Source: Myxococcota bacterium (GTDB taxonomy: Bacteria; Myxococcota_A; UBA796; GCA-2862545). Taken from it: 42,084 nt of DNA. Positions 2,021 to 38,046 of the stretch are shown piece after piece. The notes under the pieces are model-generated. The model had not been told where the DNA came from and ran no database searches. It saw nothing but the letters and a program-made list of their open reading frames with translations. The stretch lies in NCBI GenBank assembly GCA_039208735.1, contig JBCCQY010000071.1, forward strand, positions 1 to 42,084, written 5' to 3'. The translations under genes were made by a program, and so were the position numbers. Positions within the stretch are counted from its first letter, which is position 1; each line of letters opens with the position of its first letter.

Positions 2021-2038
2021 CTTCCGCTGGAGCAAGCC

Positions 2039-12199: not shown

Positions 12200-15100
12200 T
12201 CAACCTTTGAGCAGCTTGGTTTCGCTTCGGAGGAATTTCGGGTTGTTGTCGATTGACAGCTTCTCACACAGACGCTGACGGACTTTGTAGGAGGACGGGA
12301 AAAGATAAAGGTGGTACCATACAAGGCGCCGAATGATGGTTGCGACAAGCGTGTTTCGGCGCTCGTCTTCGTACAGTCGAATCGCTTGCTCTGCGGGTGT
12401 CGACCGATTGTGATCGAGTTTGATCGACAGGTCGATCAGCCGGAAGGGCGTGCGACTCTCCCCAAGGCGCTCGACCTCTCGGTATACTGGAGAGAGTTCC
12501 TCGAGTCCAACTGATTGGGACACATGGCGGATGACTCCGAACGCCATGCGCTCGCAGAGCGCGAAGAGCACGGAGTTGGCCTCCATGGTGACTTGGTGCC
12601 TTCTGGATTCTGGGCGAAGCTTTGATACATACTCGATAATGGCCTTAAGGAAGTCTTCTCCATGGGATTCCATCACCGAGTAGAGGTAGTGCAGGACACG
12701 CAATCCCAGTCGATAGCAATGATCTGCGAGCTCCACCTTTCGTTTGCCATCCAAGGAGCCTGGGTAGTTTCGGAGAATCTGCCCGATGATCTGGATGGTC
12801 TTGAAAGCAGAATTGATCATCAGGATTGGCCGGATCTCTTCGTCGAAAGCGTCGGGGTCATCCTCCCACGGAGACGACTCCGAAACGGCCTCCGCTCGGT
12901 CGCGCTTCTCGAGTTCCTCGTTTCGGTTCTCCTCTACAGTCCGATCTCCGAGTGCGAGCGTCGGCGTCTCGGCAACCAACTCGTTCAAGTACTTGGTCTG
13001 GCGGTCAGTGTTCCATTCGGGCTGGTCTTCGAACAGACTGGCTGCCGCCTCAATCATCGTGTCGAGTACAAAGGGATCGCTCGATAGATGAGACAGAAAT
13101 AACATTATCGTGGCATTCGTTTCAAGATGAACCGAGCGCGCCAACTCAACAACTTCATCTCGGATGGCCGAATCGTGAAGATGCGACTTCAAAAACCGAG
13201 CAACAAAAAAGAACTCGATGTAGGGGTAGCCGAACGTAATGTGGTCCTCGCTGCGCCGTAGTAGACCTACACTGACCAGCTCCTCGACATAGCTGGGGTA
13301 GCTCGCCTTGATGAGCTGTCGGTCGCAATAGGCTCGATGCCATTCCGCGAGCGTATCGGCGTCGATGGAGTCCAATTCTTCAGTCCTGAAGAATCGAGCC
13401 AACTCGGTCAAGTAGTTGATGCGGGAGTCAATTTCGTGAGGTCGCTTCGCCACCTTGGACAGTGCTGTCACAATCAGCGTGTGATAGAGATACCCTTGGG
13501 AACCGGCCGAGGTGTCGTGATTTCGTCCCGCCTCAAGCTGCTGCAACAGGATGAGCACGAACAGCGGGTACGATGGGACAAGTCCCTTACCAATCAGGTT
13601 GGAGATGCTCTCTTCTGCCTTTATAGCCTCGCGTTGGAGCGCAGCTACGACTTGGGAATCCGAAAGGTCGCGTCCGAGGCTGTACCAACGAGCGACCACA
13701 TCGTGTCGGCGGCGATGTCCGAGTTGGAGGAGTTCTGCATGTGAGTAGTCAAAGATGGGATGCGTACTGGCCTTCTCCCCGGCCTGGGACAAGTATTCAA
13801 GCCGCACATCATTGGACGCCAGCAGAACGACGGTGCCGAAAAAGTCCTCGAGCGCATCGAGCATCCTCGCACGAGCAGGCTTGGTCAGACGGACTCGGTG
13901 GTAGTCGTCGATGACGATTCCCCGATACTTCGGAGCCAACGCCATGAATTTGTCGAGCCTGTCTTTCGAATACTGTGCAACGAAGAGCTTCCTGATGCCA
14001 CGCTTCATCTTCTCGATATTCTTCGGTGCGAACTCGGCACCAGATGCGAGGAGAGGCAGGACGTCCCTGGTACGTAGATCAGCAACCGTCCGTTTGGCGA
14101 GACTGGATTTTCCGCTTTTCTCCTCGCCAACGATGACGACACGACGGCGGCTCAGGATGTACCCGGGAAGATCGCCGATCAATTCTCCCTTCTTGCGTCC
14201 GGTGACGGGAAGATCCTGCAAATCCGGATACACGAAGAGGTCAGATAGACGCAGCCTGGCCACTCGGGGATGTGAGAATGTAGCCCCTGGGTCGTCGAGA
14301 TGCTTCTGGAAATCCTCATTGAACTCGTACAACCCTCCGAGTCGTCGCCGATTTCGAACGAAGGGCACCCAGTTCTCGCCGCCGGATGGCACGTATGCAC
14401 CATTCTCCAGTGAGAACGTCGTTACGCGCTGCTGCTTCTCACCCAGGTCCACAACGATGACGTTGAACGAGCTTGCCTTGCTCCCAGGACCTTCTTGAAG
14501 GACACCGCCTTCCACGTAGTCTACTCGATCACCAGTGGGATAAGTTCGAGTGAATGCTTCGCTGACGTGCTCGTGGCCAGTAACGATGACATCCGAGAAC
14601 TTCTCGATGTGCTTGCGAAGCTCCTTGCTGTTGTCTGGATCAAGCCAGCCGTAGGGATGGTGCATCAGCCACACCATCAAGTCCGGGGCATCCAACCCGT
14701 CGTTCTTGACACCGTCTGTGCACTTCGCCTTGATTAACTCCACGGGAGCCCTCATTTGCCCAGGACTTTCGCGGATTGAGCTCATCCACGCGGAATTGTA
14801 AGCGTGGAACACGATCTCTCGATCAAAGAGCACCAGTTGATGGACGCCGACAAGCCCATCTTTGCTGCACGTCCAGACGTCGTGTTCCTCCGCAAAGGAC
14901 TGGTAAGGAGCCTGTAGTTCTGTACAGGCCTTCACGATATCGGAGCTGGGGTCTACTGTCGCCGACTGAAGAAGCACATCTCGCACGTCGGTCGCCAAGC
15001 CGAAGTCGCAGTCGTGGTTCCCAGGGACACCGATTGTCGCCTTCAGGGTCACGCCGCGCTTTGCCAGACCATTGCGAAGCTGTCGCAACCAGTCTGCCGC

Positions 15101-15283
15101 AATTGTGTACTCCTCCGGCTTTCCGCTGAAGGCCACGTCTCCTGTGATGGTCAATACGACTGCGTCGCAACCGGAAACCTCGGAGTGAACTGCTCCCACG
15201 AGAACGTCGTTGAACTCGAGCAGCGGGTTGTCGCGGTCTGCGCGAAAGTGGATGTCGCTCAGATGAACCAAGGCAAGACGCAA
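12200..15283 (-). CDS. Calcineurin-like metallophosphoesterase fused to a STAND/NACHT-like NTPase and a helical C-terminal region
   Basis: Phosphoesterase motifs HLSDIH, TGD, VPGNHD, MHHP, GHEH; Walker A GEEKSGKS; Walker B IVIDD; FGYPYIEFFFVARFL WHD-like segment. TTG 15283 chosen for its GGAG RBS (the ORF is open to 15346). Confidence 0.85.
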   Translation of the reverse strand: MRLALVHLSDIHFRADRDNPLLEFNDVLVGAVHSEVSGCDAVVLTITGDVAFSGKPEEYTIAADWLRQLRNGLAKRGVTLKATIGVPGNHDCDFGLATDVRDVLLQSATVDPSSDIVKACTELQAPYQSFAEEHDVWTCSKDGLVGVHQLVLFDREIVFHAYNSAWMSSIRESPGQMRAPVELIKAKCTDGVKNDGLDAPDLMVWLMHHPYGWLDPDNSKELRKHIEKFSDVIVTGHEHVSEAFTRTYPTGDRVDYVEGGVLQEGPGSKASSFNVIVVDLGEKQQRVTTFSLENGAYVPSGGENWVPFVRNRRRLGGLYEFNEDFQKHLDDPGATFSHPRVARLRLSDLFVYPDLQDLPVTGRKKGELIGDLPGYILSRRRVVIVGEEKSGKSSLAKRTVADLRTRDVLPLLASGAEFAPKNIEKMKRGIRKLFVAQYSKDRLDKFMALAPKYRGIVIDDYHRVRLTKPARARMLDALEDFFGTVVLLASNDVRLEYLSQAGEKASTHPIFDYSHAELLQLGHRRRHDVVARWYSLGRDLSDSQVVAALQREAIKAEESISNLIGKGLVPSYPLFVLILLQQLEAGRNHDTSAGSQGYLYHTLIVTALSKVAKRPHEIDSRINYLTELARFFRTEELDSIDADTLAEWHRAYCDRQLIKASYPSYVEELVSVGLLRRSEDHITFGYPYIEFFFVARFLKSHLHDSAIRDEVVELARSVHLETNATIMLFLSHLSSDPFVLDTMIEAAASLFEDQPEWNTDRQTKYLNELVAETPTLALGDRTVEENRNEELEKRDRAEAVSESSPWEDDPDAFDEEIRPILMINSAFKTIQIIGQILRNYPGSLDGKRKVELADHCYRLGLRVLHYLYSVMESHGEDFLKAIIEYVSKLRPESRRHQVTMEANSVLFALCERMAFGVIRHVSQSVGLEELSPVYREVERLGESRTPFRLIDLSIKLDHNRSTPAEQAIRLYEDERRNTLVATIIRRLVWYHLYLFPSSYKVRQRLCEKLSIDNNPKFLRSETKLLKG

Positions 15284-15749
15284 AACAGGCTCCAACGATC
15301 GTGTCGGTGTTGGGAGGAAGGCTTGTTGCTGCGAACCGATCCGCAAGTAGGAAATGGCTATCGCGCCGTCGGTACTCTCGATATCAGCTATTCATAGCGT
15401 CCTTTAGGGTGAGCCATTGGAGGTCCTGGTGGACGGACGTGAACTGAGTGAACCGGATTTTGCTCTGAAGACTGGCTCCACAGAGCCCGCAGTGCATCCT
15501 GGTCCTTTCGCGCGGGGAGCCCGCCCACAGTGAACGCCAGGGCCTTGGTTAGGGCCTCGCGCTGGGTCGAGGGGCTATCCCCTGCCAAGCTCGGCATCAG
15601 GCCCCTTTCGTTCCACATACGAATCGAGCCACGCGATGATTTCGAGCGACTCGAACAGTGGCACGCCATCGATCATGAGGCACGGCACCTGGGTGCGACC
15701 GGTTCGCTCCCGAAGTTCTTGTCGAAACTCGGGTCGCATCGTGTCGCAT

Positions 15750-25041: not shown

Positions 25042-25785
25042 TTGTCCGCCGTCTTTCGCGTCCTCGTGATCTTGGTTCTCACGGGCTGTATACGCGTGTA
25101 TCATCCATTGACGGGGTTGCATGACCCGATCGTCGTGGACCCGAGGTACCCGAACTTCGAGGGCCTGGGCGTCACCGTCCGGTGCCTGCCCCGGGATGAT
25201 CTCAACGACCGTGCGAAAGCCAGCGAAGAAGCCAGCACCCTCTGCGACCGGGTCAGCCAGCTCTTCGAAACGCAAGGGGCGGTGGTCACCGTGTCCGACG
25301 TCGTCGACATCGATGACTTCGATGAAGAGGAAGAGGAAGAGGAAGAGGAGGCCCCTCTCGACGCCGACCTCGTGATGGAGATTCGGTCTCGGCTGGTCCA
25401 CAAACGGCAGCCCTTCTTCACGATTCCCTTCTTTCTTGCTTCCTTTACCGTGCTGCCGGTGGTCGAGGAGCGCACGTTCGCCATCGATGTGGCGGTACGC
25501 GATGGCAATGGCTTCTTGCTGCTCCAAGACAGCTACCAAGGCCGGGTGGTGTCCCGTGGCGGCATTGGGCCTTGGCTCTTCAACAAGTTGGGCGATCTGG
25601 GTCGGGCCAAAGAAGACCGGTTGACCGTGGCTGCGTCGCGCCGGCGGTTCTCTGAGGATCTGTACCGTCAGCTTTCACAGCAGCTGTTTGACGCGATGTT
25701 GCGTTGGCGGGTGGTGCGCGAAGGCAATCGGCCAGCGCCTTCGGCGGTACTGAGTCCCGTGCAGACCACGGGAGAGACCCCATGA
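25042..25785 (+). CDS. Lipoprotein; gene 1 of the motor-associated operon
   Basis: Lipobox LVLTGC; poly-Glu tract; hydrophobic hairpin FFTIPFFLASFTVLP; ATGA coupling to the next gene. Confidence 0.7.
   Translation: MSAVFRVLVILVLTGCIRVYHPLTGLHDPIVVDPRYPNFEGLGVTVRCLPRDDLNDRAKASEEASTLCDRVSQLFETQGAVVTVSDVVDIDDFDEEEEEEEEEAPLDADLVMEIRSRLVHKRQPFFTIPFFLASFTVLPVVEERTFAIDVAVRDGNGFLLLQDSYQGRVVSRGGIGPWLFNKLGDLGRAKEDRLTVAASRRRFSEDLYRQLSQQLFDAMLRWRVVREGNRPAPSAVLSPVQTTGETP
25324..25350 (+). repeat. (GAAGAG)4.5 in-frame hexamer repeat encoding Glu9
   Basis: Read directly from the sequence. Confidence 0.85.
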
Positions 25786-26417
25786 TTCCGTTGGTGGCGG
25801 CATTCCCGTTCCTCGGGTTCATCGGCAAAGATCCTGCTCCCAGCGTGTTTCGGTCGTCCAAAGCGGCCCGTGAACTCGAGTGTCAGAGGGTCAGCGGGGA
25901 GGTCGGGCGGAGTCGGACTCCGAACGAGATCAAGCCAGACCGTCCCCGTGGGTCCTATGCCGAGCGCGACGTGCTTTACTGTCGGCAGCGCATCCTTCGG
26001 GAAGGGGTGCGGCACCCTCGTGACGAAGCGGTCTTGCGAGGGCTCGAAGAGCATGCCAATGAGGTGGCCTCCCTCGTCGCGTCGATTCGGGCAGATCTTT
26101 CGGACCGCACGTGGCTCGTCGAGTCGTTCTACCCGAGTCCCGCGGTGGGAACGAAGATTGCGTTTGCCACGAAGTCCGCCTTGATGCGTCAAACCCTCAA
26201 GGTGTCGGACCGAGTGCCCCTGCTTTCGGCGACCGACATCGATATTTTCATGCGGATGCCGCCTGACCAGGCGTATCCTGCAGCATGTGAGCGCTGGCAG
26301 TCGACCGGGCAGCTCCGCGACACCGACGTGTTGCTCGCGCAGGTCATTCGAGATCTGCGGGAGACACGCTTGCACACAGGTCTGTGTTTCGACGGCCAGT
26401 GGATGTGGCTCCGATGA
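25782..26417 (+). CDS. Hypothetical exported Cys-containing protein; operon gene 2
   Basis: ATGA overlaps at both ends; hydrophobic N-terminus; four Cys; ends GLCFDGQWMWLR. Confidence 0.7.
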   Translation: MIPLVAAFPFLGFIGKDPAPSVFRSSKAARELECQRVSGEVGRSRTPNEIKPDRPRGSYAERDVLYCRQRILREGVRHPRDEAVLRGLEEHANEVASLVASIRADLSDRTWLVESFYPSPAVGTKIAFATKSALMRQTLKVSDRVPLLSATDIDIFMRMPPDQAYPAACERWQSTGQLRDTDVLLAQVIRDLRETRLHTGLCFDGQWMWLR

Positions 26418-27592
26418 TGGCATTCCTGACTGTATTGGTTGCATGGTGCGGCCTGGCGTGGGCCGGGCCGGCTGAAGAGGCCCAGCTGGCCGAACTCGAC
26501 CGGCTGCGAGGCCGTTCGGCGAACCAGGTTCATCTGGCGGCGTTCGACCTTGTGGACGAAATGATCTACGGGTGGACCCAGGAACCGGTGTTTCCAAAAC
26601 CCACTCCCGTTGTTCTGGCCTCGGTCACCGTCCCAGTGGGTCTCGGCACGGGGTTGCAGGCCCAGCTTGAAAACCACATTTCGTCGGTCTTGCTGTCGCA
26701 TCCGAGTTCAAACGTAAAGCTGGTGCATTGCCCCACCTGCACCCAAGTGCTGGTGCATTCCTCGCCCAACGCGACGGTGGTGACGCGCGGTATCGACAAT
26801 CCCGCGGTGTGGTCCGAAATCGCAACGTCCACCAACCAGCACGCGCTGTTCATCGATGTTGAGGCCGAAGGGACGTTCTTGGTCCTTCGGGCACGCCTCA
26901 CTGCGCTTGAACCCGACCTGCCCATTTTGTGGAGCCGCACGATCACCTCGTCGGCGGATTCACCCGCTTTGCTCCGTAATCCTAGGGCGCTCACCTCTGC
27001 GGCTGAGGCTCGGCAGGAATACATCAATACCCTTCGCGGACGTTCGCCGTTCGCGGTTCCGTTCCGCATGACCGTTCGCGCCTACGCGCAGCCCACCAAC
27101 CGCCAGTCGGTGCCGCCACCGCCGTTCCTCTGGGTTCAAACCGGCATCGAGGTCGGTACAAGCCAGGCGAAGGATTGGACGACCAGCTTGTTGGTTGGCG
27201 CCACGTTCATCCCGCAGGCCTACCAGGGGCTGATGGTTCAGGGGCGGTTGCAGCGGTTGATCACGGGTCGAGCCCGCTCATTGACTCGTCCCGACCTGTA
27301 CGGCTTCTTTGGGGTCTCCCTGATCAGTGTGTGGGGTCCCGCGACGGCGCCGTTCTCGAATGAACGGGTCACTGCCGATGACGTCATTCAGGCTTCGAAC
27401 CTGGCTCCTCCGCGCACGTCGTTCGGCACGTTGCAGCTCGGGGCTGACCTTCGGGTCGGCAACCGCGTGGGGGTGTCCATGTTCGGCGAATGGATTCCCT
27501 CCCTCACCAACTCTCCGAACCTGGGCAGCTTCCTGCGGCTCGGTCCGGTCAGCTTCCAAGGCTTCGGGACTGAGGTGACATTCTGGTTCTGA
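26414..27592 (+). CDS. Exported protein with N-terminal alpha/beta CxxC domain and probable C-terminal outer-membrane beta-barrel; operon gene 3
   Basis: Signal peptide ending AWA|GP; CPTC; alternating amphipathic strands; C-terminal GTEVTFWF (BAM beta-signal-like). Confidence 0.7.
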   Translation: MMAFLTVLVAWCGLAWAGPAEEAQLAELDRLRGRSANQVHLAAFDLVDEMIYGWTQEPVFPKPTPVVLASVTVPVGLGTGLQAQLENHISSVLLSHPSSNVKLVHCPTCTQVLVHSSPNATVVTRGIDNPAVWSEIATSTNQHALFIDVEAEGTFLVLRARLTALEPDLPILWSRTITSSADSPALLRNPRALTSAAEARQEYINTLRGRSPFAVPFRMTVRAYAQPTNRQSVPPPPFLWVQTGIEVGTSQAKDWTTSLLVGATFIPQAYQGLMVQGRLQRLITGRARSLTRPDLYGFFGVSLISVWGPATAPFSNERVTADDVIQASNLAPPRTSFGTLQLGADLRVGNRVGVSMFGEWIPSLTNSPNLGSFLRLGPVSFQGFGTEVTFWF

Positions 27593-27600
27593 TCTTCGCC

Positions 27601-28536
27601 ATGCTCTCGGCGGCCGTCGCGGGCCCGTCTGCGACCACCGAAGCCCTGGATCGGCTTGAGGAAGTGCTCCTCGAACGGATCGAGGAAGGTCGGTTGTCGC
27701 GGGAAGACATGGTGCCGGCCATCGTGGTTAGCACCAAGCCGATCTACGAGGAGTCGAACGGCGGTTTCCAGACTCGGGCGCTCGATTTGCTATCCCAGAC
27801 CCTGGGAGACCGGGGCCTGCGTGTCTGTGAAGCGTGCATGGCGCCCCGGACCTACGCCGAAGACGGCAACCTCGTGCTCCAGACGGGTCCCATCGGTCTA
27901 GACGAGGTGCAGCGCCTTGACGACCAGAACCGTGGCGATGCGCAGCCAGCACGGACCGCCATTTGGGTCGAAGAAACGAAGCGCGGGGTATCGGTTCGGA
28001 TCGTCGACATCGCAACGGCCCGGGTCGTCTTCGCGCAGAACATCGATCCCAATTTCATCGAGTACCGACGCACGCAAAAGCGGTATCGAATGGCCGCGGA
28101 ACTCGAACGTCGGGCACGCCAGGACAGCCTCACGCAGGCGTTTGTGGACGTGGGGCTACTCCCTGACCAGCACGTATCGCTCGACTGGACCGATCAATGG
28201 GGCAAGACCAACAGCAACCTGACCGGCATCACTTTGACGGCCTGGGACCCCCTGGTGGGTCTGGGCGTGGTGCACTACAAGCGGTTGCGATTAGGGGGGG
28301 GCCGCTTCAATCCGCTCATTGGCGGAAAGGTCGTCATCAGCCTGCCCAGCGCACTTTCTCGAGTGGTCGATTCCGGTGACTTCGATCTGACCGACACCCT
28401 TGTCAATGGGGTGGCGGTGGCTCGAATCCCACTTTGGCGCTCTAACTACGGCATTCTTGCTACGGCATCGACCAACGGTCGCGTGACCATTGGGGTGTCG
28501 CTCATGAACATCAGTCTGCTGCCGGTGATCCCATGA
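27601..28536 (+). CDS. Protein with N-terminal CxxC TolB-N/CsgG-like domain and beta-rich C-terminus; operon gene 4 (true start may lie slightly upstream)
   Basis: CEAC; VRIVDIATARVVFAQN motif; amphipathic C-terminal strands; ATGA coupling downstream. Confidence 0.65.
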   Translation: MLSAAVAGPSATTEALDRLEEVLLERIEEGRLSREDMVPAIVVSTKPIYEESNGGFQTRALDLLSQTLGDRGLRVCEACMAPRTYAEDGNLVLQTGPIGLDEVQRLDDQNRGDAQPARTAIWVEETKRGVSVRIVDIATARVVFAQNIDPNFIEYRRTQKRYRMAAELERRARQDSLTQAFVDVGLLPDQHVSLDWTDQWGKTNSNLTGITLTAWDPLVGLGVVHYKRLRLGGGRFNPLIGGKVVISLPSALSRVVDSGDFDLTDTLVNGVAVARIPLWRSNYGILATASTNGRVTIGVSLMNISLLPVIP

Positions 28537-29162
28537 ATGTTCGGCTTCTTCTTCCTTTGTTCTGCGCAGCCTGCGCGGCTCGAAGCTACACCTACTACTT
28601 GATCGAGCCGGCTCCGGCGGTCGACGCGTTGTTCGAAGAGGATGAAGGCACGCAGCTGCGTCCGCTCGGCTTTGGGTCGACCACCGCCATGAAGGTCCGG
28701 TGGAACGACGGAGACGTGCTCACCGAGGTCGAGATCCCGATGCTGGCGAGCGGCCAACGCATCGTCATCGAGCACACCCCGGGGAACAACGACATCGAGA
28801 CGATTCCGATGTCTCGGATCGTTCCCCCACCGCCCACCAATGCCGACCGTACACTCGACGAGGCCTACCGCGATCGCGGTCTGCGCGTCAATGGCGATGC
28901 GGCCGAGGTGAGCATCAGTACGGCCCGAACGCGGATGCAGGAGGCGCTCGCTTCGGGCAACTACGAAATGGCCCTCGAGTGGTGCGAGCTGGTGATCGCC
29001 CGCTATCCGTCCCATCCCGAAACGCTTCGCGCAAAAGGTTCGATCCTTTTGCTTCTTGGCGAGCGGGAGAAGGCGATCGAGGTCTATGAACAAGTTGAGG
29101 AGATCGAGTCGGATCCCGCAGTGCGGAGAAAGCTCGAGGAACTCCAGCGCCAGCAACCGTAA
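28533..29162 (+). CDS. TPR-containing lipoprotein; operon gene 5
   Basis: Lipobox CAAC; C-terminal TPR (GNYEMALEW...YPSH...KGSILLLLGEREKAIEVYEQV). Confidence 0.78.
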   Translation: MNVRLLLPLFCAACAARSYTYYLIEPAPAVDALFEEDEGTQLRPLGFGSTTAMKVRWNDGDVLTEVEIPMLASGQRIVIEHTPGNNDIETIPMSRIVPPPPTNADRTLDEAYRDRGLRVNGDAAEVSISTARTRMQEALASGNYEMALEWCELVIARYPSHPETLRAKGSILLLLGEREKAIEVYEQVEEIESDPAVRRKLEELQRQQP

Positions 29163-29196
29163 GGGTGCCTAGCGCCCGAGATTTCGAGGGGAACCT

Positions 29197-29919
29197 GTGC
29201 AACTGATTGGACTGCTGCTGCTGGCCTTCGTGGTCTGGTACGGGTTCGGTGAACGGACCGATCAGACCATTTCCGCGTTTGACATGCATGCCTTTGTGGT
29301 CGTGCTTGGCGGTTCGTTGTCGGCCATCATGGTGTCGTCTTCGGTGGCCACCACGTTGCGAACCCTGACCGCCTTGCGGGAAGCGATTCCCGGGCTGGGG
29401 GTCTTAGGACCAGGAAATGATGCGCTAGAGGCGGACCGAGCCCAACTCGTCGAATTGTGGATGGACGGCAAGCGCGCCCAAGCGGTGCAGCTTGCCGAGT
29501 CGAGCCCGTTTCCCGCCATCGCTCGCATGGTGGACCTCGTGCTGAATCGGGCACCCGACGAAACCACGAAGGCGGCATTTACCGAGCTGACCCACCAAGA
29601 GCTGTCCCGTTGGCAGCCCGCCGTCGCGAATTGGGAGCTGCTCTCGAAGCTCGCTCCATCGTTCGGGATGGTTGGTACGATCACTGGGATGATCCAGCTG
29701 TTTCGCACGCTCGGTGAAGATACCAACATGGGGGCGGCCATTTCGCTTGCGCTGCTCGCGACCCTGTATGGGGTTGCGTTTGGCGCTGGGGTGGCGGGGC
29801 CGATCGGCCATTACCTGCGGAGCTTGCTCGACGAGCGGCTCGGGGTACTCGAGCGCTGTGAGCACAGCGTCAATGACCTCATCGCACGGTCCGGCCGCGC
29901 GGCTGCGGCGGGAGCGTAG
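29197..29919 (+). CDS. Flagellar-type MotA/PomA-like stator subunit; operon gene 6
   Basis: VVVLGGSLSAIMVS (MotA TM2), LAPSFGMVGTITGMIQL, ALLATLYG; precedes a MotB-like gene. Confidence 0.88.
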   Translation: MQLIGLLLLAFVVWYGFGERTDQTISAFDMHAFVVVLGGSLSAIMVSSSVATTLRTLTALREAIPGLGVLGPGNDALEADRAQLVELWMDGKRAQAVQLAESSPFPAIARMVDLVLNRAPDETTKAAFTELTHQELSRWQPAVANWELLSKLAPSFGMVGTITGMIQLFRTLGEDTNMGAAISLALLATLYGVAFGAGVAGPIGHYLRSLLDERLGVLERCEHSVNDLIARSGRAAAAGA

Positions 29920-29922
29920 TCG

Positions 29923-30552
29923 ATGCGCCGTCGTAGCTACGTCAGTGACGAAGGCTGGCTGCTCTCGTATGCCGACCTCATCACCAACCTGCTGATCTTC
30001 TTCGCCATGCTCCTTGGAGCAGCCGAGATCAGCCGAACGCGGATGCAGGAAATCGCGCGGGAACTCTCGGGGGAAGAACAGCCCGAAAGCCTCGCTTCGA
30101 TCCAGCAAGCCATCGATGAACGGATCGAGAAGGAAGGCCTGCAAGAGGTCATTTTCACCGATCTCACGGACGAAGGGCTCAAGCTGCAACTCAACTCGGG
30201 CCTGGTGTTCGATGTGGGCAGCGCGATCATTCGATCCGAGCAAGAAGTGGTTCTCGACAGCATGTTGCAGACTTTGGTGCCGTATGGCGACAAGTATGCT
30301 TTTGCGGTGGAAGGCCACACCGACTCCACGCCCTTCGGCAATGGCCAAGCCGAAGGCCGCACCAACTGGGAGCTGTCCGCCGACCGAGCGAATGCCGTTC
30401 GGTATCGCCTCGAGCAGGTGGGTGTGCAGCGTGGCCGAATCCGGGTGGAAGGTTTCGCCGACACCGTGTCGCTCCCCGAGGACCAACTCGAGGGGCTGAC
30501 GGAAGAGGAGCGCCTCGCCCGCCACCGCCGCGTCGTCGTGAGGGTGTTCTGA
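29923..30552 (+). CDS. MotB-like stator subunit with OmpA-type peptidoglycan-binding domain; operon gene 7
   Basis: WLLSYADLITNLLIFFAML (conserved ion-binding Asp), VEGHTD, NWELSADRANAV, HRRVVVRV. Confidence 0.92.
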   Translation: MRRRSYVSDEGWLLSYADLITNLLIFFAMLLGAAEISRTRMQEIARELSGEEQPESLASIQQAIDERIEKEGLQEVIFTDLTDEGLKLQLNSGLVFDVGSAIIRSEQEVVLDSMLQTLVPYGDKYAFAVEGHTDSTPFGNGQAEGRTNWELSADRANAVRYRLEQVGVQRGRIRVEGFADTVSLPEDQLEGLTEEERLARHRRVVVRVF

Positions 30553-32351
30553 TGGGGTTTGTGCGCAACCTTTTGTTGGCGGTCGTGAGCCTGGGAGCCG
30601 CGTCTTCGGCGTTGGCCCAGGTGCCGGACCGCCAGATCCCGCCCACCGTATTGACGGAATTGCGGCTTCTCGCGAATCGGTTCGATCTCGCATTGGCGGC
30701 GGACTGCGATGAAACGCGGTGCTTTTCGAAGGGCTGCACCTACATCGCGCACTCGGTGGCCGATCAGCCGAAGTCCACCTCGTTGCCCGGGCTTGGTGGC
30801 GAGCCGGGTCCCGGTAGCGTCGACGCGCAGGAATACCTGACGAGTGCCCGGTGTGCGTTCGCGTATGAAGAAAATGTCTCGGCAGAAGATGCCAAGGCAC
30901 TCGCGCGACGGCTTCGGGCAAAACTGTCGTCCGGTTGGACCTCGGTGAGCGTGACGACCCAGCGCCTCGAGCCGTTGCCGGATTACCTGCAAAAGCCCCC
31001 TCCGCCAGAGCCTGACCCCGAGGAGCAAGCCCTCGAAGAGGAGCCCCTCGAAGAGGAACTTCCGGCCGAAGAAGCGTGGTCCTTCGTGACCGCGGGCCGG
31101 GAACTCTGGACGAGCCTCTTACCGCATTTCTACTGGATGATCGGCCTGGTATTGGCCACCATGGCGGGTGCCATTCTCATTTGGGCGTGGCGGCGGGTGG
31201 GGCAGGCCTCGCTCGAGGAGCAGATGCTGCTCGCCGAGATGGGTCGTGGAGAGAGCGGGCCCAGCGAGGCCATGGTCTCTGAGACGTCCGACGAGGAAAC
31301 GTTCGTCGCCGAGCAAGAGGCGGCTTGGACCGAGCGCATGGAAGGCCTCGACCCGGCCAAGCCGGATCCAGAGATCCAGGCGCTGCTCCGAGAATTGCTC
31401 CGTTCGCGCGACCTTCCGCTCCTCGCCAAGGCGGTGCTGCGGTTCCCCCAACTGTCGCCCCTGATGCCGGCCGGCGGTGGGTTTGCGACGGCCAAGCTCG
31501 AACTCGCAGACTTCCTCAAAACGGTGGACGACGAGACCCTGCCGTCGGACGCGGAGTTCTACCGCAACCTCAACCGCAACGCGCTGTCCGCGGCGGTGGC
31601 CTCCCAAAGTGATGCCCAGATCGTAGTGAACCTGCGTGAAGAATTCGGCCCCTCGGGCTTGGCCACGTTGATGGCCCAGCTCGAGGACCGGCCGGCAGCA
31701 TTGCTCTTTGCTCTGGCGCCGACGGATGCGCAGCACGAAATCGTGCGGCTGTTGCCGACCCAGCGCGTGGCCACGATGGCCGAGATGCTCATGCGAAGCA
31801 ATCGCATGAGCCCGAGCGAGACCGAGCACCTCTTTGAGGTGTTGGCGGCGGCGCGGGGCGAAGTCACCATTCCCGGCGCCTCCAAGTCCAAGGCCATTAC
31901 CGACCTTGGTGAGGAGTTCGACGCGGCAGGCGCGTTGTCGGTGCTGCTCGAAAGCGTCAATCCGGCACGTCGCACGACCCTCTTCCGCAGCGCCCTGGAG
32001 CGGTCGCACGGCAGCTTCCCGGCCTGGTACCGTGGCATTCTCGTTGCCGACATGCTGTTCGAGTTGCCGGTGGAGACCCGCGCTGACCTTTTGCTCGAAC
32101 TCGACATCGAACCGCTGGCCGCGTGGATGTCGTTGCTCGACGGGGAGGCACAGTCCCGCCTGCTTGCCGGCATGCCACGGGCGCTGGTTTCTTCGGTGCA
32201 GTCGGTGTCTGAATTGGGGTCGCGGTCCCGTCAGGTCGCGCTCGCCGACCGGGGGCGTCGTGACCTTGCCCGGGCCTTCCAGCGGCAGCTCCAGCGGGCC
32301 CAAATCCCGTTTGAACGCGTGGTGGTGCCTGCAGGTGGGGGCGGACCGTGA
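30552..32351 (+). CDS. Single-pass membrane protein: signal peptide, FliF-RBM3-like periplasmic domain, TM, FliG middle/C-terminal-like cytoplasmic region; operon gene 8
   Basis: Signal ending ALA|Q; TM FYWMIGLVLATMAGAILIWAW (~aa 193-213); FliG-M-like LMAQLEDRPAALLFALAPTDAQHEIVRLLP; FliG-C-like ILVADMLFELPVETRADLLLELDIEPLAAWMSLLDGEAQSRLLAGMPR. Confidence 0.65.
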   Translation: MGFVRNLLLAVVSLGAASSALAQVPDRQIPPTVLTELRLLANRFDLALAADCDETRCFSKGCTYIAHSVADQPKSTSLPGLGGEPGPGSVDAQEYLTSARCAFAYEENVSAEDAKALARRLRAKLSSGWTSVSVTTQRLEPLPDYLQKPPPPEPDPEEQALEEEPLEEELPAEEAWSFVTAGRELWTSLLPHFYWMIGLVLATMAGAILIWAWRRVGQASLEEQMLLAEMGRGESGPSEAMVSETSDEETFVAEQEAAWTERMEGLDPAKPDPEIQALLRELLRSRDLPLLAKAVLRFPQLSPLMPAGGGFATAKLELADFLKTVDDETLPSDAEFYRNLNRNALSAAVASQSDAQIVVNLREEFGPSGLATLMAQLEDRPAALLFALAPTDAQHEIVRLLPTQRVATMAEMLMRSNRMSPSETEHLFEVLAAARGEVTIPGASKSKAITDLGEEFDAAGALSVLLESVNPARRTTLFRSALERSHGSFPAWYRGILVADMLFELPVETRADLLLELDIEPLAAWMSLLDGEAQSRLLAGMPRALVSSVQSVSELGSRSRQVALADRGRRDLARAFQRQLQRAQIPFERVVVPAGGGGP

Positions 32352-34561
32352 TCTTGGGTTTCGGACGTTGGGTCCTCGCCATACTCCTCGTCGTCTCGGC
32401 GATGAGCTGCGGCAAGGTTCGGCTCTTCGATGTCGGGGCGGAGTTCGTCCAGGCCGACATCACGTGGTTCGAAGGCGAAGAAACCTTGTTCGTCTTCTAC
32501 CAAGTCAACGCACTGCAGGGTCTCAACCAGCTTTCGGCGGTCGAGATCTCCTGGGATGGCCCCGAGCCGAGGGACTGGACGCCCATAGAAGACCTGCCCA
32601 AGGTCCACACCCACATTCCCGCAGATTGTGGCGTGACGTCGCTTTGCGGCAGCACGAGCCTGCATGTGCCGGGGGAGCCCACCCGCGTGCGCCTTCGTCT
32701 GCGCTACCACCCCGATGCGGAAAGCAACGTCTCCGCCCAGCCGCTCTACAATGTGGTGGGCGATGGCCCTCCGCCAGCGAGCCGAAGCTTCCTCGTCTAC
32801 GGCATCTTCGATGAGCGCAATGTGCTCATCCAGTGGCGCGGACGGCACCAGTTTCCCACGATCCGCAACCAGCGCGCGGAGCGCCTCGGGTTGAGGCGAG
32901 ACTTCACCGTTCGCGACCAGCGCTACGGCATCGTAGGGACTGCGCCCTCGAACAACCCCTACGGCTACGGCGAACCGTGCCCCGATGGGTTCACCGCGAC
33001 CGACATCCCCGAGCTGACCTCGAATCGTCGGGCGGTCTTCAACCTCGAGGAATTGCCCCAGGCCTCGTTTGGGGCCTCGGCGGTGTGTGCGGAAGTGTCG
33101 GTGCGCGATGCGACTGGGTCCTATACGACCGATGCGTATGCGAGGAAGAATCCCGAAATTCGATCGGCATTTCCGCGCTACGAGAATCCCGTTCGCGAAG
33201 CGACGGTGCTCCCGTTCTTCTTGGCTCCCTGTGGACGCATCATCTCGACCGAACATGAGGAGATGCAACGCCAGCGACTGCAAATGCCCGGCGTTCCGGT
33301 GACATGCACCGACGATGCGCTGAGTCCCGCGTTCACGTTCCAGTTGGCGGTGGCGTTTCTCGATGCCATCGAGACCGCGCGGCCGGCTGGCAACGACATG
33401 GTCCTCGCCATTGGCATTCATCAGGATGACGACGCCGTCAGTGCCGCGGTCGAGGAGGCCTTGGCGACGTTTTTGCCCGAAGAACGCCATCGCACCTCGC
33501 CCCGCGTTGCGGGCGCGTTTGTGTTCGATAGCGAAGCGCGGCGCATCACGATGGAGGGCGTCGACAAGACGACGCTGTGGTGCCCCTCTCTGATCGGCAA
33601 TGCCGGATTCAGCGCTTCCGCGGTTTCCTGTCCGAAACTGCCGGATGACCCCGCCTTATTGCTGGGCCCAATCGCCATTGACACGCTGCCCATCTTGCCC
33701 GACCGCGAGGAATATCTCGATTTCATCGATGACTTCTCGGTTCGGCTCGCCGGGACCATCAACGAGTTGACCTACCGGGTGCCGGAGTTCACACCCACCA
33801 CGGACCACCGAGACCTCGGTGATTTTGGCGTGGTGACCTTCGCGAACGGCGAAGCCATCACCGCCGATGGCGATGACGCTTTTTCGTACTGCGCAACCAA
33901 GGAACCCCTTCCGTTCGTCGTTCGCTCCGCGTTGATGGAGAGTCCCCAGCTCGCCTACCTGCTCGCGGATTACTGCGTGTCGACGACGCCAACGCCGGGC
34001 GACAGCGGGCGAGGGGGCGGCGAAGATACCGAGCCGCAGCCCGTCGGCGGTCCAACGCCGGGTGTGGGGCCTGACGACTACACGGGCTACGGCAAGGGCA
34101 GCTCCATCTGTGACGCCATCTTGGCCGGGCTCTTGCCCATCGATGCGCTGCCCGACTGGCACTCGGTGTTTGGGGAGTCCCGCTACGAGATCGGCCTGTT
34201 CTGGGAATTTCCCTTCCTGCTGCAGCTCGAGTATGAAGCGCGCACCGCGGCCTCCGTTACGGCCTTCGGCGTGACGATTCCGTTTGGGTTTGGCAGCGAG
34301 GACCAAAGCTTTTTCGGTTCTCGACTCTGGCGGGATCGAGAGGAGATTCCCAAGAAAAAGAAAGCGTTCAAGCCTGACCCCTACGACATCGACTCCATTC
34401 TGCAGCACTGTCGCCGCTTCTGTGACCATCCCACCCTTGACGGGGCGGGAGTCTACAACGTGCTCGCGCCGTTCCGGGCCACCTACGCTCGGGCTTGCTA
34501 TCGCCCGCGCTTCCCCGACCCGAACGACGAAAACTTCGATGGATTCCCTCTTGATCCCTAG
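32348..34561 (+). CDS. Large Cys-rich lipoprotein; operon gene 9
   Basis: GTGA coupling; lipobox AMSC; many Cys; Pro/Gly/Thr low-complexity insert. Confidence 0.72.
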   Translation: MILGFGRWVLAILLVVSAMSCGKVRLFDVGAEFVQADITWFEGEETLFVFYQVNALQGLNQLSAVEISWDGPEPRDWTPIEDLPKVHTHIPADCGVTSLCGSTSLHVPGEPTRVRLRLRYHPDAESNVSAQPLYNVVGDGPPPASRSFLVYGIFDERNVLIQWRGRHQFPTIRNQRAERLGLRRDFTVRDQRYGIVGTAPSNNPYGYGEPCPDGFTATDIPELTSNRRAVFNLEELPQASFGASAVCAEVSVRDATGSYTTDAYARKNPEIRSAFPRYENPVREATVLPFFLAPCGRIISTEHEEMQRQRLQMPGVPVTCTDDALSPAFTFQLAVAFLDAIETARPAGNDMVLAIGIHQDDDAVSAAVEEALATFLPEERHRTSPRVAGAFVFDSEARRITMEGVDKTTLWCPSLIGNAGFSASAVSCPKLPDDPALLLGPIAIDTLPILPDREEYLDFIDDFSVRLAGTINELTYRVPEFTPTTDHRDLGDFGVVTFANGEAITADGDDAFSYCATKEPLPFVVRSALMESPQLAYLLADYCVSTTPTPGDSGRGGGEDTEPQPVGGPTPGVGPDDYTGYGKGSSICDAILAGLLPIDALPDWHSVFGESRYEIGLFWEFPFLLQLEYEARTAASVTAFGVTIPFGFGSEDQSFFGSRLWRDREEIPKKKKAFKPDPYDIDSILQHCRRFCDHPTLDGAGVYNVLAPFRATYARACYRPRFPDPNDENFDGFPLDP

Positions 34562-35369
34562 TCTCGCCATGGTGTGGCTCGGTGCGGCCTGGGCCCAGGA
34601 CGCCGAGCCGGTTGAACCCGTCGAAACGTCCGAGCCGGCTCCGAGCCCCGAGGCTTCGGACGAAGACCCGTTGTCTCGCTACAAAACGCCTTTTCAGGTG
34701 CTCGCGAACCGCACCATCGGGACGGTGTCGTCGAAGCTCGCCTTCAATTGGCGACGGACGAAGATTCAAGTGGGAGGAACGGGGAGCTTCCTCTTCGAAC
34801 TCAACACGTTCAATTCGGCCCGGATCGGGGCATTGATCCGTCGCCCGACGAATAGCGTGATGATCGAGTTCGGTGTTTCGTACACCCGGGTTTGGGACTC
34901 CGAAAGCAGCCGTCAGCTTGCGATGACCGCGTTTCGTCAACCCGGTCGACCGAGTCGCCTCGAACTCGAGACCCAGGTGGCCATACCGCTTGCCGAAGGC
35001 GTGGTGACTGCCATGCCACGATGGTTTCCTTCGGCCCAGCTGGTCTTCAATGCGACGCTTGGTTTCCGCTACTCGATCTATCCCACCGGCTACGCGGAAC
35101 TCCGACCCGGACAGGTCGCCGCGGCCCTCTTCCAGCCGGCGTTGAGCGAGGCCGAACTCGCCAATCTCGAAGAGGCTCGTCTCGACGCGATGGCGGTGGA
35201 CCCCGCGCGCTATGGCATCACGGCCGGCTTTACCAACGATATCTACTTTGAACGCGGCATCTTCGTTTCGCCACGGGTGCAATTCGCCGTGCCTGCATTG
35301 GCGTTCGTGACCAACAGCAGCCTTCCGTTCTGGGTGGATGTGAGCCTGGCCGTCGGCGTGGCGCTCTGA
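34539..35369 (+). CDS. Probable outer-membrane beta-barrel protein; operon gene 10
   Basis: Signal ending AWA|Q, acidic/Pro linker, amphipathic strands (IQVGGTGSF, IEFGVSYT, FNATLGFRYS), C-terminal WVDVSLAVGVAL. Confidence 0.65.
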   Translation: MDSLLIPSLAMVWLGAAWAQDAEPVEPVETSEPAPSPEASDEDPLSRYKTPFQVLANRTIGTVSSKLAFNWRRTKIQVGGTGSFLFELNTFNSARIGALIRRPTNSVMIEFGVSYTRVWDSESSRQLAMTAFRQPGRPSRLELETQVAIPLAEGVVTAMPRWFPSAQLVFNATLGFRYSIYPTGYAELRPGQVAAALFQPALSEAELANLEEARLDAMAVDPARYGITAGFTNDIYFERGIFVSPRVQFAVPALAFVTNSSLPFWVDVSLAVGVAL

Positions 35370-37258
35370 TGTGGTGGCTCGTCGCTTCGGCGTTGGCTGG
35401 GGATCCGACTGGGCTCCCCACCGATCAGACGCTCGTGTATTACAACGCCCGGCTCGCGTTGCGCGAGGGGGACCCGCTGACCGCGGCCAAGTTCTGGTTC
35501 CTGCGCAACGCCATCGAAGACGAAACGGGTCGCGTTTCCGAGCACGACCCGGATTTCGGTTCGGTCACGTGGGCAGCGCTTGGCGACCTCGGCATTTGCC
35601 CAGATGGGCAGCCGACCGACGAAGAAGGGTCAGGGCTTTGGCCGTTGTCCCTGCACAACTGGGTCGTACGGAACCGCAACCGACGCTCCATTCCCAAGCC
35701 CCCCAACCCCTACCGTGCGTTCGATGTGGGCCGGCAGGCCCGGTACATCTCCATCGAAGACGTCCTTTCGGCTGACGAGATGCGGACCATTTCGCTGGTT
35801 CGCGGCCGGTGCTTGCGACCTCGCCTTTCGTTGCTCGACGCCGGAGAGACCCTGCAAGCCAAGTTGACGGACCGCGCGGTGGCGGCCCGTTTGCTACGTC
35901 ATTTGTTGGAGCAAGGCCGATCCACGATGGACCGAGACCGCGTGCGAGGGGTGGCGGCCATCGATGCGCGCCTCTTCGATCTCGATCTCAAGATCACCGA
36001 GCTTGCCGCTCGGGAGGCGCGCAAGAAGGCTCGAAAACAGGCGTTGACGGCGCGTCGAAGAGGTCTCTCTCGTGAGTCGGTCTCCGTGGCCGTCGAAGAG
36101 GCGCCCAAGTTTGCGTTCCGGAATTCAAGAGATGCCAAGCTGATCTTGCGACAGTCTCGCGATTGGCCTGTTTCGGAATGGATGACGCTTTCGTCAGAAC
36201 GGAGGCGGTTTCTGTATGACAAGGCGCGAAGCTACGTGCAGGACCCCGAGGCGTTCGATGGCCTTGCGTTGGGAATCATCGATGCCTTGATCGAGCGGGG
36301 CGAAGGGGCGGACGTCGCGCTGTGGATCCCACGCTACGCGGCCGGCCTTGAGCCCATCTGGTCGGGGGAACGGGGGCGTCGCCTCCTCGCCCTTGATGAC
36401 GAAAGCGGCTTTCGGGAGCGGTCGGTGGTGGCGCTGCATCGAGGGGTGCGCTTCCTCGAGCAGGGCCTGATGCCGGAGGCGCTGACCGCTTTTGCATTCT
36501 CGCTCCAGAATGCTGCGCAGTCGCAGATCGATGACGAGGTTCAAAGCCTGTCATTGCGATGGATGTCGTACGTGGCGTCCCAGTTCGAGTTGACCGACGA
36601 TCTTTTGGCAACGCTCGAGGAACTCGTTCCGCGTCGCGAGTACACGGTGATTCTCGAGGACCTCATGTGGAGCGCGGCGTTCCGCGCGGACCGCAGGTCG
36701 TTCGATCGGGGGCGACGTCGGCAACCGGGGCGAGGAGCCCTCGTTCGACGCATGGACCTGCTACTGCCGCTGGCAATGGGCGACGTACCGCGGTTCACCG
36801 CGGTGATTCGGCAACGGCTCGAGGAGTCCCCCAGCGAGACCATTCGGTTCCTCGACCAATTCGTGCAACGGCTCGAACTCGAAGACAGCGGGCTGCGAGC
36901 GGCCCACGTCGAGACGCTCACCCGCATTCGGACGATGCTCGAACCGATTGCCGATCCGCAGGGAGACGGCCGATCCCGCCGCCGCGCCGAGGCGTTGCTG
37001 GACCGGACCCTTTCGATCATCGATGGCGTAGGGGGACTCGGGGATGCGGCGTCGAGTCGTGACCGGGCGCGCGACCTCGACCCCTCGGGCACGGTGTTCG
37101 CGGGAAGCGTCCGCTTGGCGCCTTCCGATCCGTTGCCCTGGCCGTTCCGCATCGATTCCGTGTCGGCGCCCTCGATTTTCCAGCCGTTGAAACTGCGGCC
37201 TGTCGAGTGGCAAGATCCCGATGGGAGCTGGGTGTTTGGCTGGAGTATCGAAGGATGA
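35369..37258 (+). CDS. Large exported alpha-helical (TPR-like) protein; operon gene 11
   Basis: TGATG coupling; short signal MWWLVASALA|G; TPR-like YYNARLALREGDPLTAAKFW and LHRGVRFLEQGLMPEALTAF. Confidence 0.68.
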   Translation: MWWLVASALAGDPTGLPTDQTLVYYNARLALREGDPLTAAKFWFLRNAIEDETGRVSEHDPDFGSVTWAALGDLGICPDGQPTDEEGSGLWPLSLHNWVVRNRNRRSIPKPPNPYRAFDVGRQARYISIEDVLSADEMRTISLVRGRCLRPRLSLLDAGETLQAKLTDRAVAARLLRHLLEQGRSTMDRDRVRGVAAIDARLFDLDLKITELAAREARKKARKQALTARRRGLSRESVSVAVEEAPKFAFRNSRDAKLILRQSRDWPVSEWMTLSSERRRFLYDKARSYVQDPEAFDGLALGIIDALIERGEGADVALWIPRYAAGLEPIWSGERGRRLLALDDESGFRERSVVALHRGVRFLEQGLMPEALTAFAFSLQNAAQSQIDDEVQSLSLRWMSYVASQFELTDDLLATLEELVPRREYTVILEDLMWSAAFRADRRSFDRGRRRQPGRGALVRRMDLLLPLAMGDVPRFTAVIRQRLEESPSETIRFLDQFVQRLELEDSGLRAAHVETLTRIRTMLEPIADPQGDGRSRRRAEALLDRTLSIIDGVGGLGDAASSRDRARDLDPSGTVFAGSVRLAPSDPLPWPFRIDSVSAPSIFQPLKLRPVEWQDPDGSWVFGWSIEG

Positions 37259-38046
37259 AGGCATCGGCGGCCAAGCAGAAGGCTGCGGCCAAGCTGGCCC
37301 AGCTCGAACAACGACGGCAGGCCCAGTCCCAGGTGGCCGCCCAGAAGCGGGCAGCACTCGAGCGACGCCAGCAGGCCGAGGTCAGCAAGCTCGAACGTCG
37401 GCAACAGTCGCAGGCTGAGGAACTCGAACGGCGCCAGAAGTCGCAGGCCCAGGCCATCACGGCCAAGCGGGTGGCGCTCGAGCGACAGGTCGCCGAGCGG
37501 AAAGCCGCGCGCCCAAAGGAACGTAAGGGCGACCGGATTTGGCGTTGGATCGCCCTCATCCTGGCCATCCTACTCCTGCTCTTGCTCTTCCGTGAGTGTG
37601 AGGAAGCGCCCGAACTTGAGCCCGAAGGTGTGGGGACCGTGGGGCCTGCGTTGGCCGTCGAAGTGGTGTCCGATCCGGCGCCTGTCGTTGTCGAGCCGCC
37701 TCCACCTCGCGTGGTGCGTCGCGACCGCCCCAATCTCGTTCCGCCCCCACCGACGCCGCCGAACTGGCTCGTGGCCTTCCGCATGCAGGTGTCTGCCCGC
37801 AGCCCTCGGCTCGCGGAGTGCTTTGAAGGCATGGGCCGGCCTGGTCAAATCAAATGGACGGCCTCGGTCGAGCCGACCACCGGGCGAGTGGGCGACCACG
37901 TCATCGAACCGCTGTTGTTCACCGGGGAATTGTCGAAGCCCGAGCGGTCGTGCATCGAGACGGTTCTGGCAGAGCCTGACTATCGGCTTCCCCCTGTAGA
38001 CCCCGATTCGATGCCCTCTCGCGTAAGCCTGGTGCTCGAGTTCTAA
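37255..38046 (+). CDS. TonB/TolA/GltG-like protein with coiled-coil repeats, TM, Pro-rich linker and AgmX/PglI-type C-terminal domain; operon gene 12
   Basis: ATGA coupling; LERRQ repeats; TM WIALILAILLLLLLF; PPPP linker; RLAECFE...GQIKWTASVEPTTGRV...SCIETVL...RVSLVLEF. Confidence 0.7.
   Translation: MKASAAKQKAAAKLAQLEQRRQAQSQVAAQKRAALERRQQAEVSKLERRQQSQAEELERRQKSQAQAITAKRVALERQVAERKAARPKERKGDRIWRWIALILAILLLLLLFRECEEAPELEPEGVGTVGPALAVEVVSDPAPVVVEPPPPRVVRRDRPNLVPPPPTPPNWLVAFRMQVSARSPRLAECFEGMGRPGQIKWTASVEPTTGRVGDHVIEPLLFTGELSKPERSCIETVLAEPDYRLPPVDPDSMPSRVSLVLEF

Follow-up and report, generated by a model that had tools for sequence, protein, structure and literature searches.

Can the torque core of the flagellum, a MotAB stator working on FliG, serve a machine that is not a flagellum? 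The question is raised by a 12-gene operon at positions 25042 to 38046 of a 42,084-nucleotide stretch of contig JBCCQY010000071.1 (the window; all operon coordinates refer to it). FliG rings are known to us solely as flagellar rotors, and the original prediction had read this locus as a non-flagellar stator-rotor core. That reading holds: the operon encodes a FliG fold, its genes are conserved together, and flagellated carriers have a second motAB. We conclude that the locus encodes a genuine and conserved system, independent of flagella, whose basis is the flagellar torque core, and that it likely works like the flagellar motor core. The broader proposal, a second kind of FliG-ring rotary motor unrelated to flagella, by which predatory and gliding Myxococcota would power an outer-membrane machine through a one-chain rotor and a stator belonging to it, has in our judgment an even chance of being right.

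Gene 8 (30552 to 32351, + strand) encodes the predicted rotor, consisting of a signal peptide, a periplasmic ring-type domain, one transmembrane helix and FliG. The FliG homologue (N, M and C domains, without the EHPQ motif or the acidic torque helix) occupies residues 286 to 590 (31407 to 32321, + strand). It was missed by single-sequence Pfam and NCBIfam scans, which returned just a marginal MgtE_N match, and by a narrow alignment (A1), and was found only with a wide alignment of 75 gene 8 homologues (A6). A6 matched solved FliG at an E value of 5e-16 (1lkv) and Salmonella FliG (8umd_B) at 7e-11, spanning residues 32 to 321, and aligned with 20 flagellar FliG proteins from related genomes over 218 columns (hhalign, 96.5%). 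FliG_C was matched singly by 13 of the 75 A6 members; the N domain is supported more weakly, by the 8umd_B and 3hjl alignments. An AlphaFold model of gene 8 (pLDDT 86, pTM 0.59) places a leader, the domain at residues 28 to 141, a linker, a membrane helix at 192 to 214 and helical domains in that order. With this model, FliG was the top match in Foldseek (E=4e-4), and FliG-C was the top match in a wide structure search (Z 11.1, root mean square deviation [rmsd] 2.3, 88 residues aligned). FliG-like segments had been suspected in this membrane protein, and a FliG fold had been set beforehand as a test of the idea; both profile and fold confirm it.

The periplasmic part of gene 8 (residues 28 to 141; 30633 to 30974, + strand) is modeled as an alpha-beta-beta-alpha-beta domain resembling RBM3 of FliF. 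Structure comparison with FliF gave Z 8.8 (8z5v; rmsd 3.5, 93 aligned) and Z 8.1 (6scn; rmsd 3.6, 96 aligned). The RBM3 reading is favored because the domain lies outside the membrane and has, in the model, a disordered insert between its two long strands; we take the collar insert of FliF to sit at the same place. Four Cys residues of the domain are invariant in 75/75 homologues, and mean column identity is 0.69 to 0.79 in the ring domain and FliG-M/C versus 0.35 to 0.57 in the leader and linkers. The model does not show the whole FliF architecture, with a first membrane helix followed by RBM1, RBM2 and RBM3, but has a single periplasmic domain of about 115 residues. Since this leaves no room for RBM1/2, gene 8 would offer no seat for an export gate. 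Thus, of the fused FliF/FliG-like rotor first envisaged, the FliG part stands, and the FliF part shrinks to one domain. Two other natural FliG fusions were seen in the Atlas: a 105-member cluster, mostly Pseudomonadota, with YscJ_FliF_C, FliG_M and FliG_C in 446 residues, and a 129-member cluster in which FliG_C is joined to a glycosyl hydrolase 57 domain.

The two genes upstream of gene 8 encode its predicted stator. Gene 6 (29197 to 29919, + strand) is a divergent flagellar-type MotA that passes the PF01618 cut-off. Its top NCBIfam matches, below cut-off, are flagellar MotC/PomA/MotA, with TolQ much weaker (E=0.01 versus 5e-18 for the MotC type). Residues P154, T161, T189 and P202 are invariant, and the sequence is alignable across the cytoplasmic domain. 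In a quick tree (the MotA trees are quick and FastTree trees only), operon MotA forms its own branch beside flagellar MotA, closer to it than to TolQ/AglR and separate from the host's flagellar MotA. Operon MotA reads ATLYG where the host flagellar MotA and a more distant version of the operon (see below) read TTFYG (window 29197 to 29919 versus L009:7031-7792); presumably the close version would then run on protons and the others on sodium. Gene 7 (29923 to 30552, + strand) encodes a short MotB of 209 amino acids that passes the PF13677 and PF00691 cut-offs. It keeps the essential Asp18 (invariant in 22/22), the plug and the OmpA-type wall-binding domain. Plug and OmpA domain are listed among flagellar-stator traits in PMC12505986. 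Profile matches in both libraries therefore confirm the motA-like and motB-like genes predicted at the outset.

The 12 open reading frames (ORFs) fill the interval on the + strand. Seven of the 11 junctions are overlaps of -4 or -1 (ATGA, TGATG, GTGA), the genes are separated at three others by 8, 34 and 3 bp, 34 bp being the largest gap, and the gene 9/10 junction is uncertain, gene 10 starting at 34539, 34551 or 34569. ORF tiling and the junction check thus bear out the first description of 12 co-oriented, mostly overlapping genes with gaps of at most about 34 bp. Of 401 genomes sampled from the phylum, 25, the host among them, have the close version of this operon; in the other 376 it was not found. 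The names of homologues point to Myxococcota. Among 21 related loci that were fetched, all 12 genes stand in order in 16, three are cut by contig ends, and two are broken; motA, motB and gene 8 are adjacent in 21/21. Co-conservation of the genes, another test posed beforehand, is thus observed, and the genes are intact and conserved across families. One related record (L003) is titled Enterobacterales; its 12 genes are 44 to 75% identical to those of the window, and the title is probably wrong. At a further locus (L104:6600-17200, genome G095), the 12 genes are in order but fragmented, between flanking ORFs that are long and open. G095 is a 1.8-Mb single contig, 96% complete, with a GC content of 0.48 and no FliG or FlhA match. 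To judge from its ORFs, the L104 operon looks like the decay of a whole unit.

A second, distant version has the same core. The A6 profile at E≤1e-12 marked 64 of the 401 genomes: 25 with the close version, 21 with a second subfamily of 600 residues and 18 matching in the FliG part only. Three of the last group were fetched (L123, L128 and L129); all proved to be ordinary fliF-fliG loci and were set aside. The second subfamily occurs in 20 of 34 genomes of family f17 and in G281, so that one or the other version is present in 46/401 genomes; most families have neither. All 17 distant loci fetched carry motA-motB-rotor inside a conserved 11-gene run, and the distant rotor matches FliG independently (E=1e-4; hhalign 95%). 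Profile links to the window operon are strong for the rotor (99.8%), gene 5/c3 (97%) and gene 3/c8 (96%), weaker for gene 12/c4 (55%) and gene 9/c10 (25%), and unsupported (≤1.4%) for gene 11/c6, gene 10/c7, gene 10/c5 and gene 9/c1. Apart from the five linked genes, four genes of the distant operon have no profile link to the window operon; two distant-operon genes give weak barrel matches below cut-off. Downstream of the distant operon, clusters c23, c20, c24, c18 and c19 are conserved in 5 to 7 of the 17 loci (L110 to L114), and at L120:6970-8340 (G161) the distant motA and motB share one 457-residue ORF in which the motB match is partly missing, a fusion or a frameshift. Public proteins of the distant subfamily are named Bradymonadaceae and Lujinxingia, the latter cultured. 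In PMC7188933, Bradymonas and Lujinxingia are described as gliding, unlike flagellated Persicimonas.

Protein searches revealed a third rotor subfamily, with a full-length match in 0/401 genomes and no match on plasmids. Its sole fetched locus, a 4.5-kb contig, carries gene 4, gene 5, gene 8, an unassigned ORF and gene 9. That ORF (L102:3030-3854), which separates the gene 8 homologue from that of gene 9, is lipoprotein-like, is 274 residues long and matches no operon profile.

Could the operon nevertheless belong to flagella, as an accessory (a second stator or rings) or a leftover? The carriers surveyed are assembled genomes, 84 to 99% complete, in which kin are not independent and absence means "not found." The host has flagellin, rod, hook, fliF, fliG and flhA genes and a second motAB on C28; its FliG, FlhA and FliP sit on contigs other than that of the window. 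The separate motAB on C28 rules out operon MotAB as the sole stator of the host flagellum. Contamination was also rejected as a source of the host flagellar contigs, C81, C13 and C28 being as near the genome tetranucleotide mean as the window contig. A Pfam search for FliM found no match in this flagellated genome (G000) despite its other flagellar genes; its FliM is divergent or unassembled. Besides the host there are 24 close carriers. FliG was found in 19 of them, of which 18 have a second MotB plug, which speaks against operon MotAB being the only stator of flagellated carriers. The remaining five lack FliG and have a single plug, the operon's. Nine of 20 non-carriers are flagellated, each with one plug. 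Four of the 21 distant carriers have FlhA over cut-off and flagellin, and 17 have neither; where a distant carrier has a single MotB plug, that plug lies beside the rotor gene in 12/15 cases. In G281, 25 flagellin N-domain matches were seen on several contigs, some in ORFs of 1300 to 2200 residues.

No flagellar rotor or export match was found in 22 of the 46 carriers (5 close by FliG, 17 distant by FlhA), nor flagellin in the 21 of these that were searched. Genome G182, 99% complete with an intact operon, gave no FliG, FlhA, FliP or flagellin match. Missing contigs are an unlikely cause, given G182 and four genomes of genus g60 that are 96 to 99% complete. The operon occurs independently of flagellar genes. 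On the proposed check whether carriers lack flagellar export and axial genes, the host has them, which the original prediction did not foresee; in the 22 they were not found by FliG or FlhA and, in 21, by flagellin. A flagellar role can still point to the flagellated host and 19 of 24 close carriers, and to G332, which has FliG and FlhA and in which only the operon MotB plug was found (96% complete, 340 contigs). With 22 carriers lacking a flagellar rotor or export match, 9 flagellated relatives lacking the operon, and the operon genes intact across families, we consider it hardly credible.

The same survey bears on two other roles, the base of a secretion system (as partner of a needle-less type III system) and a Zorya-like anti-phage motor. 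Most distant-version carriers have an FlhA-like gene below the flagellar cut-off, probably SctV, and the operon MotB matches ZorB models. However, neither an FlhA-like nor a FliP-like match was obtained in three carriers (G182, G187 and G317), which shows that the system can do without a type III export gate, and gene 8 has no domains to hold one. The 12 operon proteins gave no match to ZorA, the ZorC-G effectors or other defense families beyond the generic ZorB match of one of them. Taken together, these roles seem very improbable.

The other nine genes encode predicted envelope proteins. With Pfam and NCBIfam, family matches were obtained for gene 5 (TPR), gene 6 (MotA-like) and gene 7 (MotB plug and OmpA domain); the eight operon genes other than 5, 6, 7 and 8 have no significant match. 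Gene 1 (25042 to 25785, + strand) is a predicted lipoprotein with LTGC at residues 13 to 16, a conserved Cys, an uncertain start codon and no Pfam or NCBIfam match. Gene 2 (25782 to 26417, + strand) is a predicted exported protein of no family with four invariant Cys (alignment A8); genes 1 and 2 are each present in 19/21 related loci and gene 11 in 20/21. Gene 3 (26414 to 27592, + strand) is predicted to join an LpoB/CsgG/TolB_N-like domain to an outer-membrane beta-barrel. Its Atlas feature matches to LpoB/CsgG and OMP_b-brl clusters are 0.94 to 0.95, its structure rows reach the naming bar for outer-membrane barrels (predicted models, TM by query 0.35 to 0.43), and its C-terminal residue is Phe in 18/19. 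Gene 4 (27601 to 28536, + strand) is likely a distant paralogue of gene 3, with an hhalign score of 64% to the gene 3-like c8 family. One of 18 gene 4 members gave a weak CsgG match (E=0.07), direct gene 3/gene 4 and gene 1/gene 4 comparisons were negative, and no sequence match was found in the PDB. Gene 5 (28533 to 29162, + strand) is a TPR lipoprotein, with TPR_2 over cut-off and an invariant Cys14.

Downstream of the rotor gene, gene 9 (32348 to 34561, + strand) encodes a large Cys-rich predicted lipoprotein (15 Cys, lipobox-like leader, no family) that is a candidate surface or cargo part. Gene 10 (34539 to 35369, + strand) is a candidate outer-membrane beta-barrel by its C-terminal pattern only: it has no family match, and an alternating C-terminal strand ends in F or L in 21/21, so that genes 3 and 10 both have a barrel-type terminal strand. 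Gene 11 (35369 to 37258, + strand) is a large predicted exported protein (alignment A14) without family or TPR match. Gene 12 (37255 to 38046, + strand) encodes an inner-membrane protein with a charged N-terminal arm, a transmembrane segment at 92 to 119, a Pro-rich linker and a likely AgmX/PglI-type (TonB-C-like) end domain. Compared with AgmX/PglI domains of the host, gene 12 alone scored 3.8%, its distant homologue c4 95% and the two pooled 95%, versus ≤4.0% for 28 control windows. The link was positive only with 12 host domains and c4; comparisons of gene 12 with TolA-C and with a three-member AgmX set were negative, and in the comparison with GltG/GltJ-type TonB-C proteins neither NF033768 nor NF033760 was matched, although the pooled profile gave the same type of domain. 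These assignments treat the original prediction unevenly. Its three lipoproteins stand, genes 1, 5 and 9 each having a hydrophobic leader followed by a Cys placed as in a lipobox, and its TonB-C-like protein probably does too, by way of the distant operon version only. Of its two to three barrels, gene 3 is supported, gene 10 has the terminal pattern and gene 4 resembles the gene 3 family, and of its TPR proteins gene 5 stands and gene 11 does not.

Barrels, a TPR lipoprotein and an AgmX/PglI-type domain echo parts of the Glt machinery, and the operon might be a second surface-gliding engine, its motor travelling along the cell as in Agl-Glt with MotAB and FliG in place of AglRQS. The gliding of Bradymonas and Lujinxingia without flagella, as given in PMC7188933, would suit this. 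On the other hand, no operon protein matched the Glt families in NCBIfam at E 0.1, where likeness to the GltA/B/H barrels, the GltC/D/E TPR proteins and the CglB adhesin was considered, and GltG-like genes were found elsewhere in the genome, below cut-off, in 5/5 genomes tested; the operon is therefore not the hosts' Agl-Glt cluster. The Glt-like envelope parts originally proposed thus hold as a likeness only. The MotB wall-binding domain suits a fixed motor, and the close version is absent from 376/401 genomes, most families being without either version. We regard a traveling gliding engine as decidedly doubtful.

With odds slightly better than even, we instead favor an ion-driven FliG ring motor whose force would cross the periplasm and reach a predicted complex of the outer membrane. 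In the manner of a flagellar stator, MotB would hold the cell wall and the passage of ions would rotate the MotA pentamer. Copies of gene 8 may form a ring through the RBM3-like domain, and MotA would engage FliG-C like a gear, by way of a re-coded interface private to this system. As the FliM site is gone, we propose rotation in one direction only. Force would then go from the ring, together with the TonB-like product of gene 12, to the barrels (genes 3, 4 and 10), the lipoproteins (genes 1, 5 and 9) and gene 11. The most likely output would be that a surface lipoprotein such as that of gene 9 is moved or presented for contact with a surface or prey, much as the Bacteroidota GldLM motor drives a ring and an adhesin. 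Rotation, ring formation and output are what we infer; the parts, gene order, FliG homology, the Asp, plug and wall anchor of MotB and the occurrence apart from flagellar genes were observed.

Several observations weigh against such a motor, and the loss of torque charges is its main weakness. Acidic residues number 3.4 per 12 in the torque helix of flagellar FliG versus 0.6 in gene 8. Flagellar MotA keeps R89 and E97 in 21/21 sequences; in operon MotA an Arg is invariant but lies one column off, and no Glu is in register. In PMC12505986, the stator-rotor contact pairs are E. coli MotA R90/E98 with FliG D288-D289/R281. With the charges gone from gene 8 and the MotA Arg/Glu pair out of register, the known torque contact is lost, which the original prediction had not anticipated. 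EH-Q is invariant in the 20 flagellar FliG proteins, and EHPQ, which we take to be the FliM-binding site of FliG, is found neither among the commonest gene 8 motifs nor in any of the three consensus lines. At the sequence level, the changes on both partners would fit either a private interface or a loss of gearing. The RBM3 likeness is tied with MamM-CTD (Z 8.9) and KH-type folds, and the sequence link of gene 8 to FliF is weak (hhalign 35%, 33 columns). The MotA sets of the close and distant versions do not group together in the tree, and a single origin of the three rotor subfamilies is poorly supported (0.51). Two loci are broken (L057 after gene 8, L058 before motA; the absent genes are not beside the break, the blocks not having been sought elsewhere), and in the third-subfamily locus gene 8 directly follows gene 5, without an intervening motAB. 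Finally, 19/24 close carriers are flagellated versus 9/20 non-carriers.

Some of these points would suit a Ton/Tol-like energizer, in which the barrels would be opened or loaded by MotAB winding or pulling on the gene 12 product, while gene 8 would not turn but serve as a static frame for the stators. Torque charges are lost on both partners, MotB is short, a TonB-C-like protein closes both operon versions, and one third-subfamily locus has no adjacent motAB. This arrangement is nonetheless unlikely, if the most serious competitor of the ring motor: the A/B subunits are of the flagellar type with plug and OmpA domain, not of the ExbBD/TolQR type, and the whole of FliG is conserved, its MotA-facing C domain included. 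If the ring motor is real, it is a living minimal rotor-stator module that bears on the state of the flagellar motor core before or after flagella. The operon has a defined set of parts, exists in two versions that split deeply, and occurs in cultured hosts, among them the non-flagellated Lujinxingia.

In the rest of the window, in line with the first description, no other flagellar genes were found among the 28 of 182 ORFs taken into the general library scans (Pfam and NCBIfam). Promoter and terminator scans gave signals at chance level, and none of four upstream window genes recurs at related loci. A DS-8 anti-phage protein gene lies at 12200 to 15346 (- strand), above its NCBIfam cut-off (908 versus 790 bits), in a low-GC stretch (0.55) that was likely acquired. 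Genes for VWA_CoxE, a MoxR-type AAA ATPase and DUF5682 follow one another at 596 to 5961 (+ strand).

How, then, does the operon compare with known systems? With the flagellar motor core it shares MotA/MotB with Asp, plug and OmpA domain, and FliG N/M/C, and with FliF one RBM3-like periplasmic domain before the transmembrane helix of gene 8 (the likeness tied with MamM-CTD). Unlike the flagellar rotor, gene 8 naturally forms a single chain, lacks RBM1/2 and carries a signal predicted to be cleaved, and unlike flagellar FliG it has no EHPQ and no canonical torque charges; the locus has no export gate, rod, hook or filament and carries nine extra envelope genes. Glt parts include a TonB-C-like membrane protein, a TPR lipoprotein and outer-membrane barrels, and Myxococcus Agl-Glt has these and an ion motor in common with the operon, whose motor, however, is of the wall-anchored MotAB type rather than the TolQR-type AglR/Q/S and comes with a FliG protein. 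Ton/Tol-Pal shares the TonB/TolA-like topology of gene 12, but the operon A/B subunits are not ExbBD/TolQR-type and FliG is present. Zorya shares a MotB-like subunit outside flagella, and the operon differs in its normal-length MotA and its envelope partners. As tested, the operon appears to fall outside the flagellar, Agl-Glt, Ton/Tol and Zorya families. As first supposed, it does not seem to be a described system: full-text literature searches found no description of it, with the proviso that gene tables of PMC12505986 could list such stators. No operon protein matched the Gld or Spr families in NCBIfam. The ring of the Bacteroidota GldLM/GldKN type IX secretion and gliding motor differs from that predicted here, which would lie in the inner membrane and be driven from the cytoplasm, but GldLM/GldKN and, by prediction, the operon have in common a 5:2 ion motor that works a ring in the envelope, with outer-membrane barrels and surface proteins connected to it.

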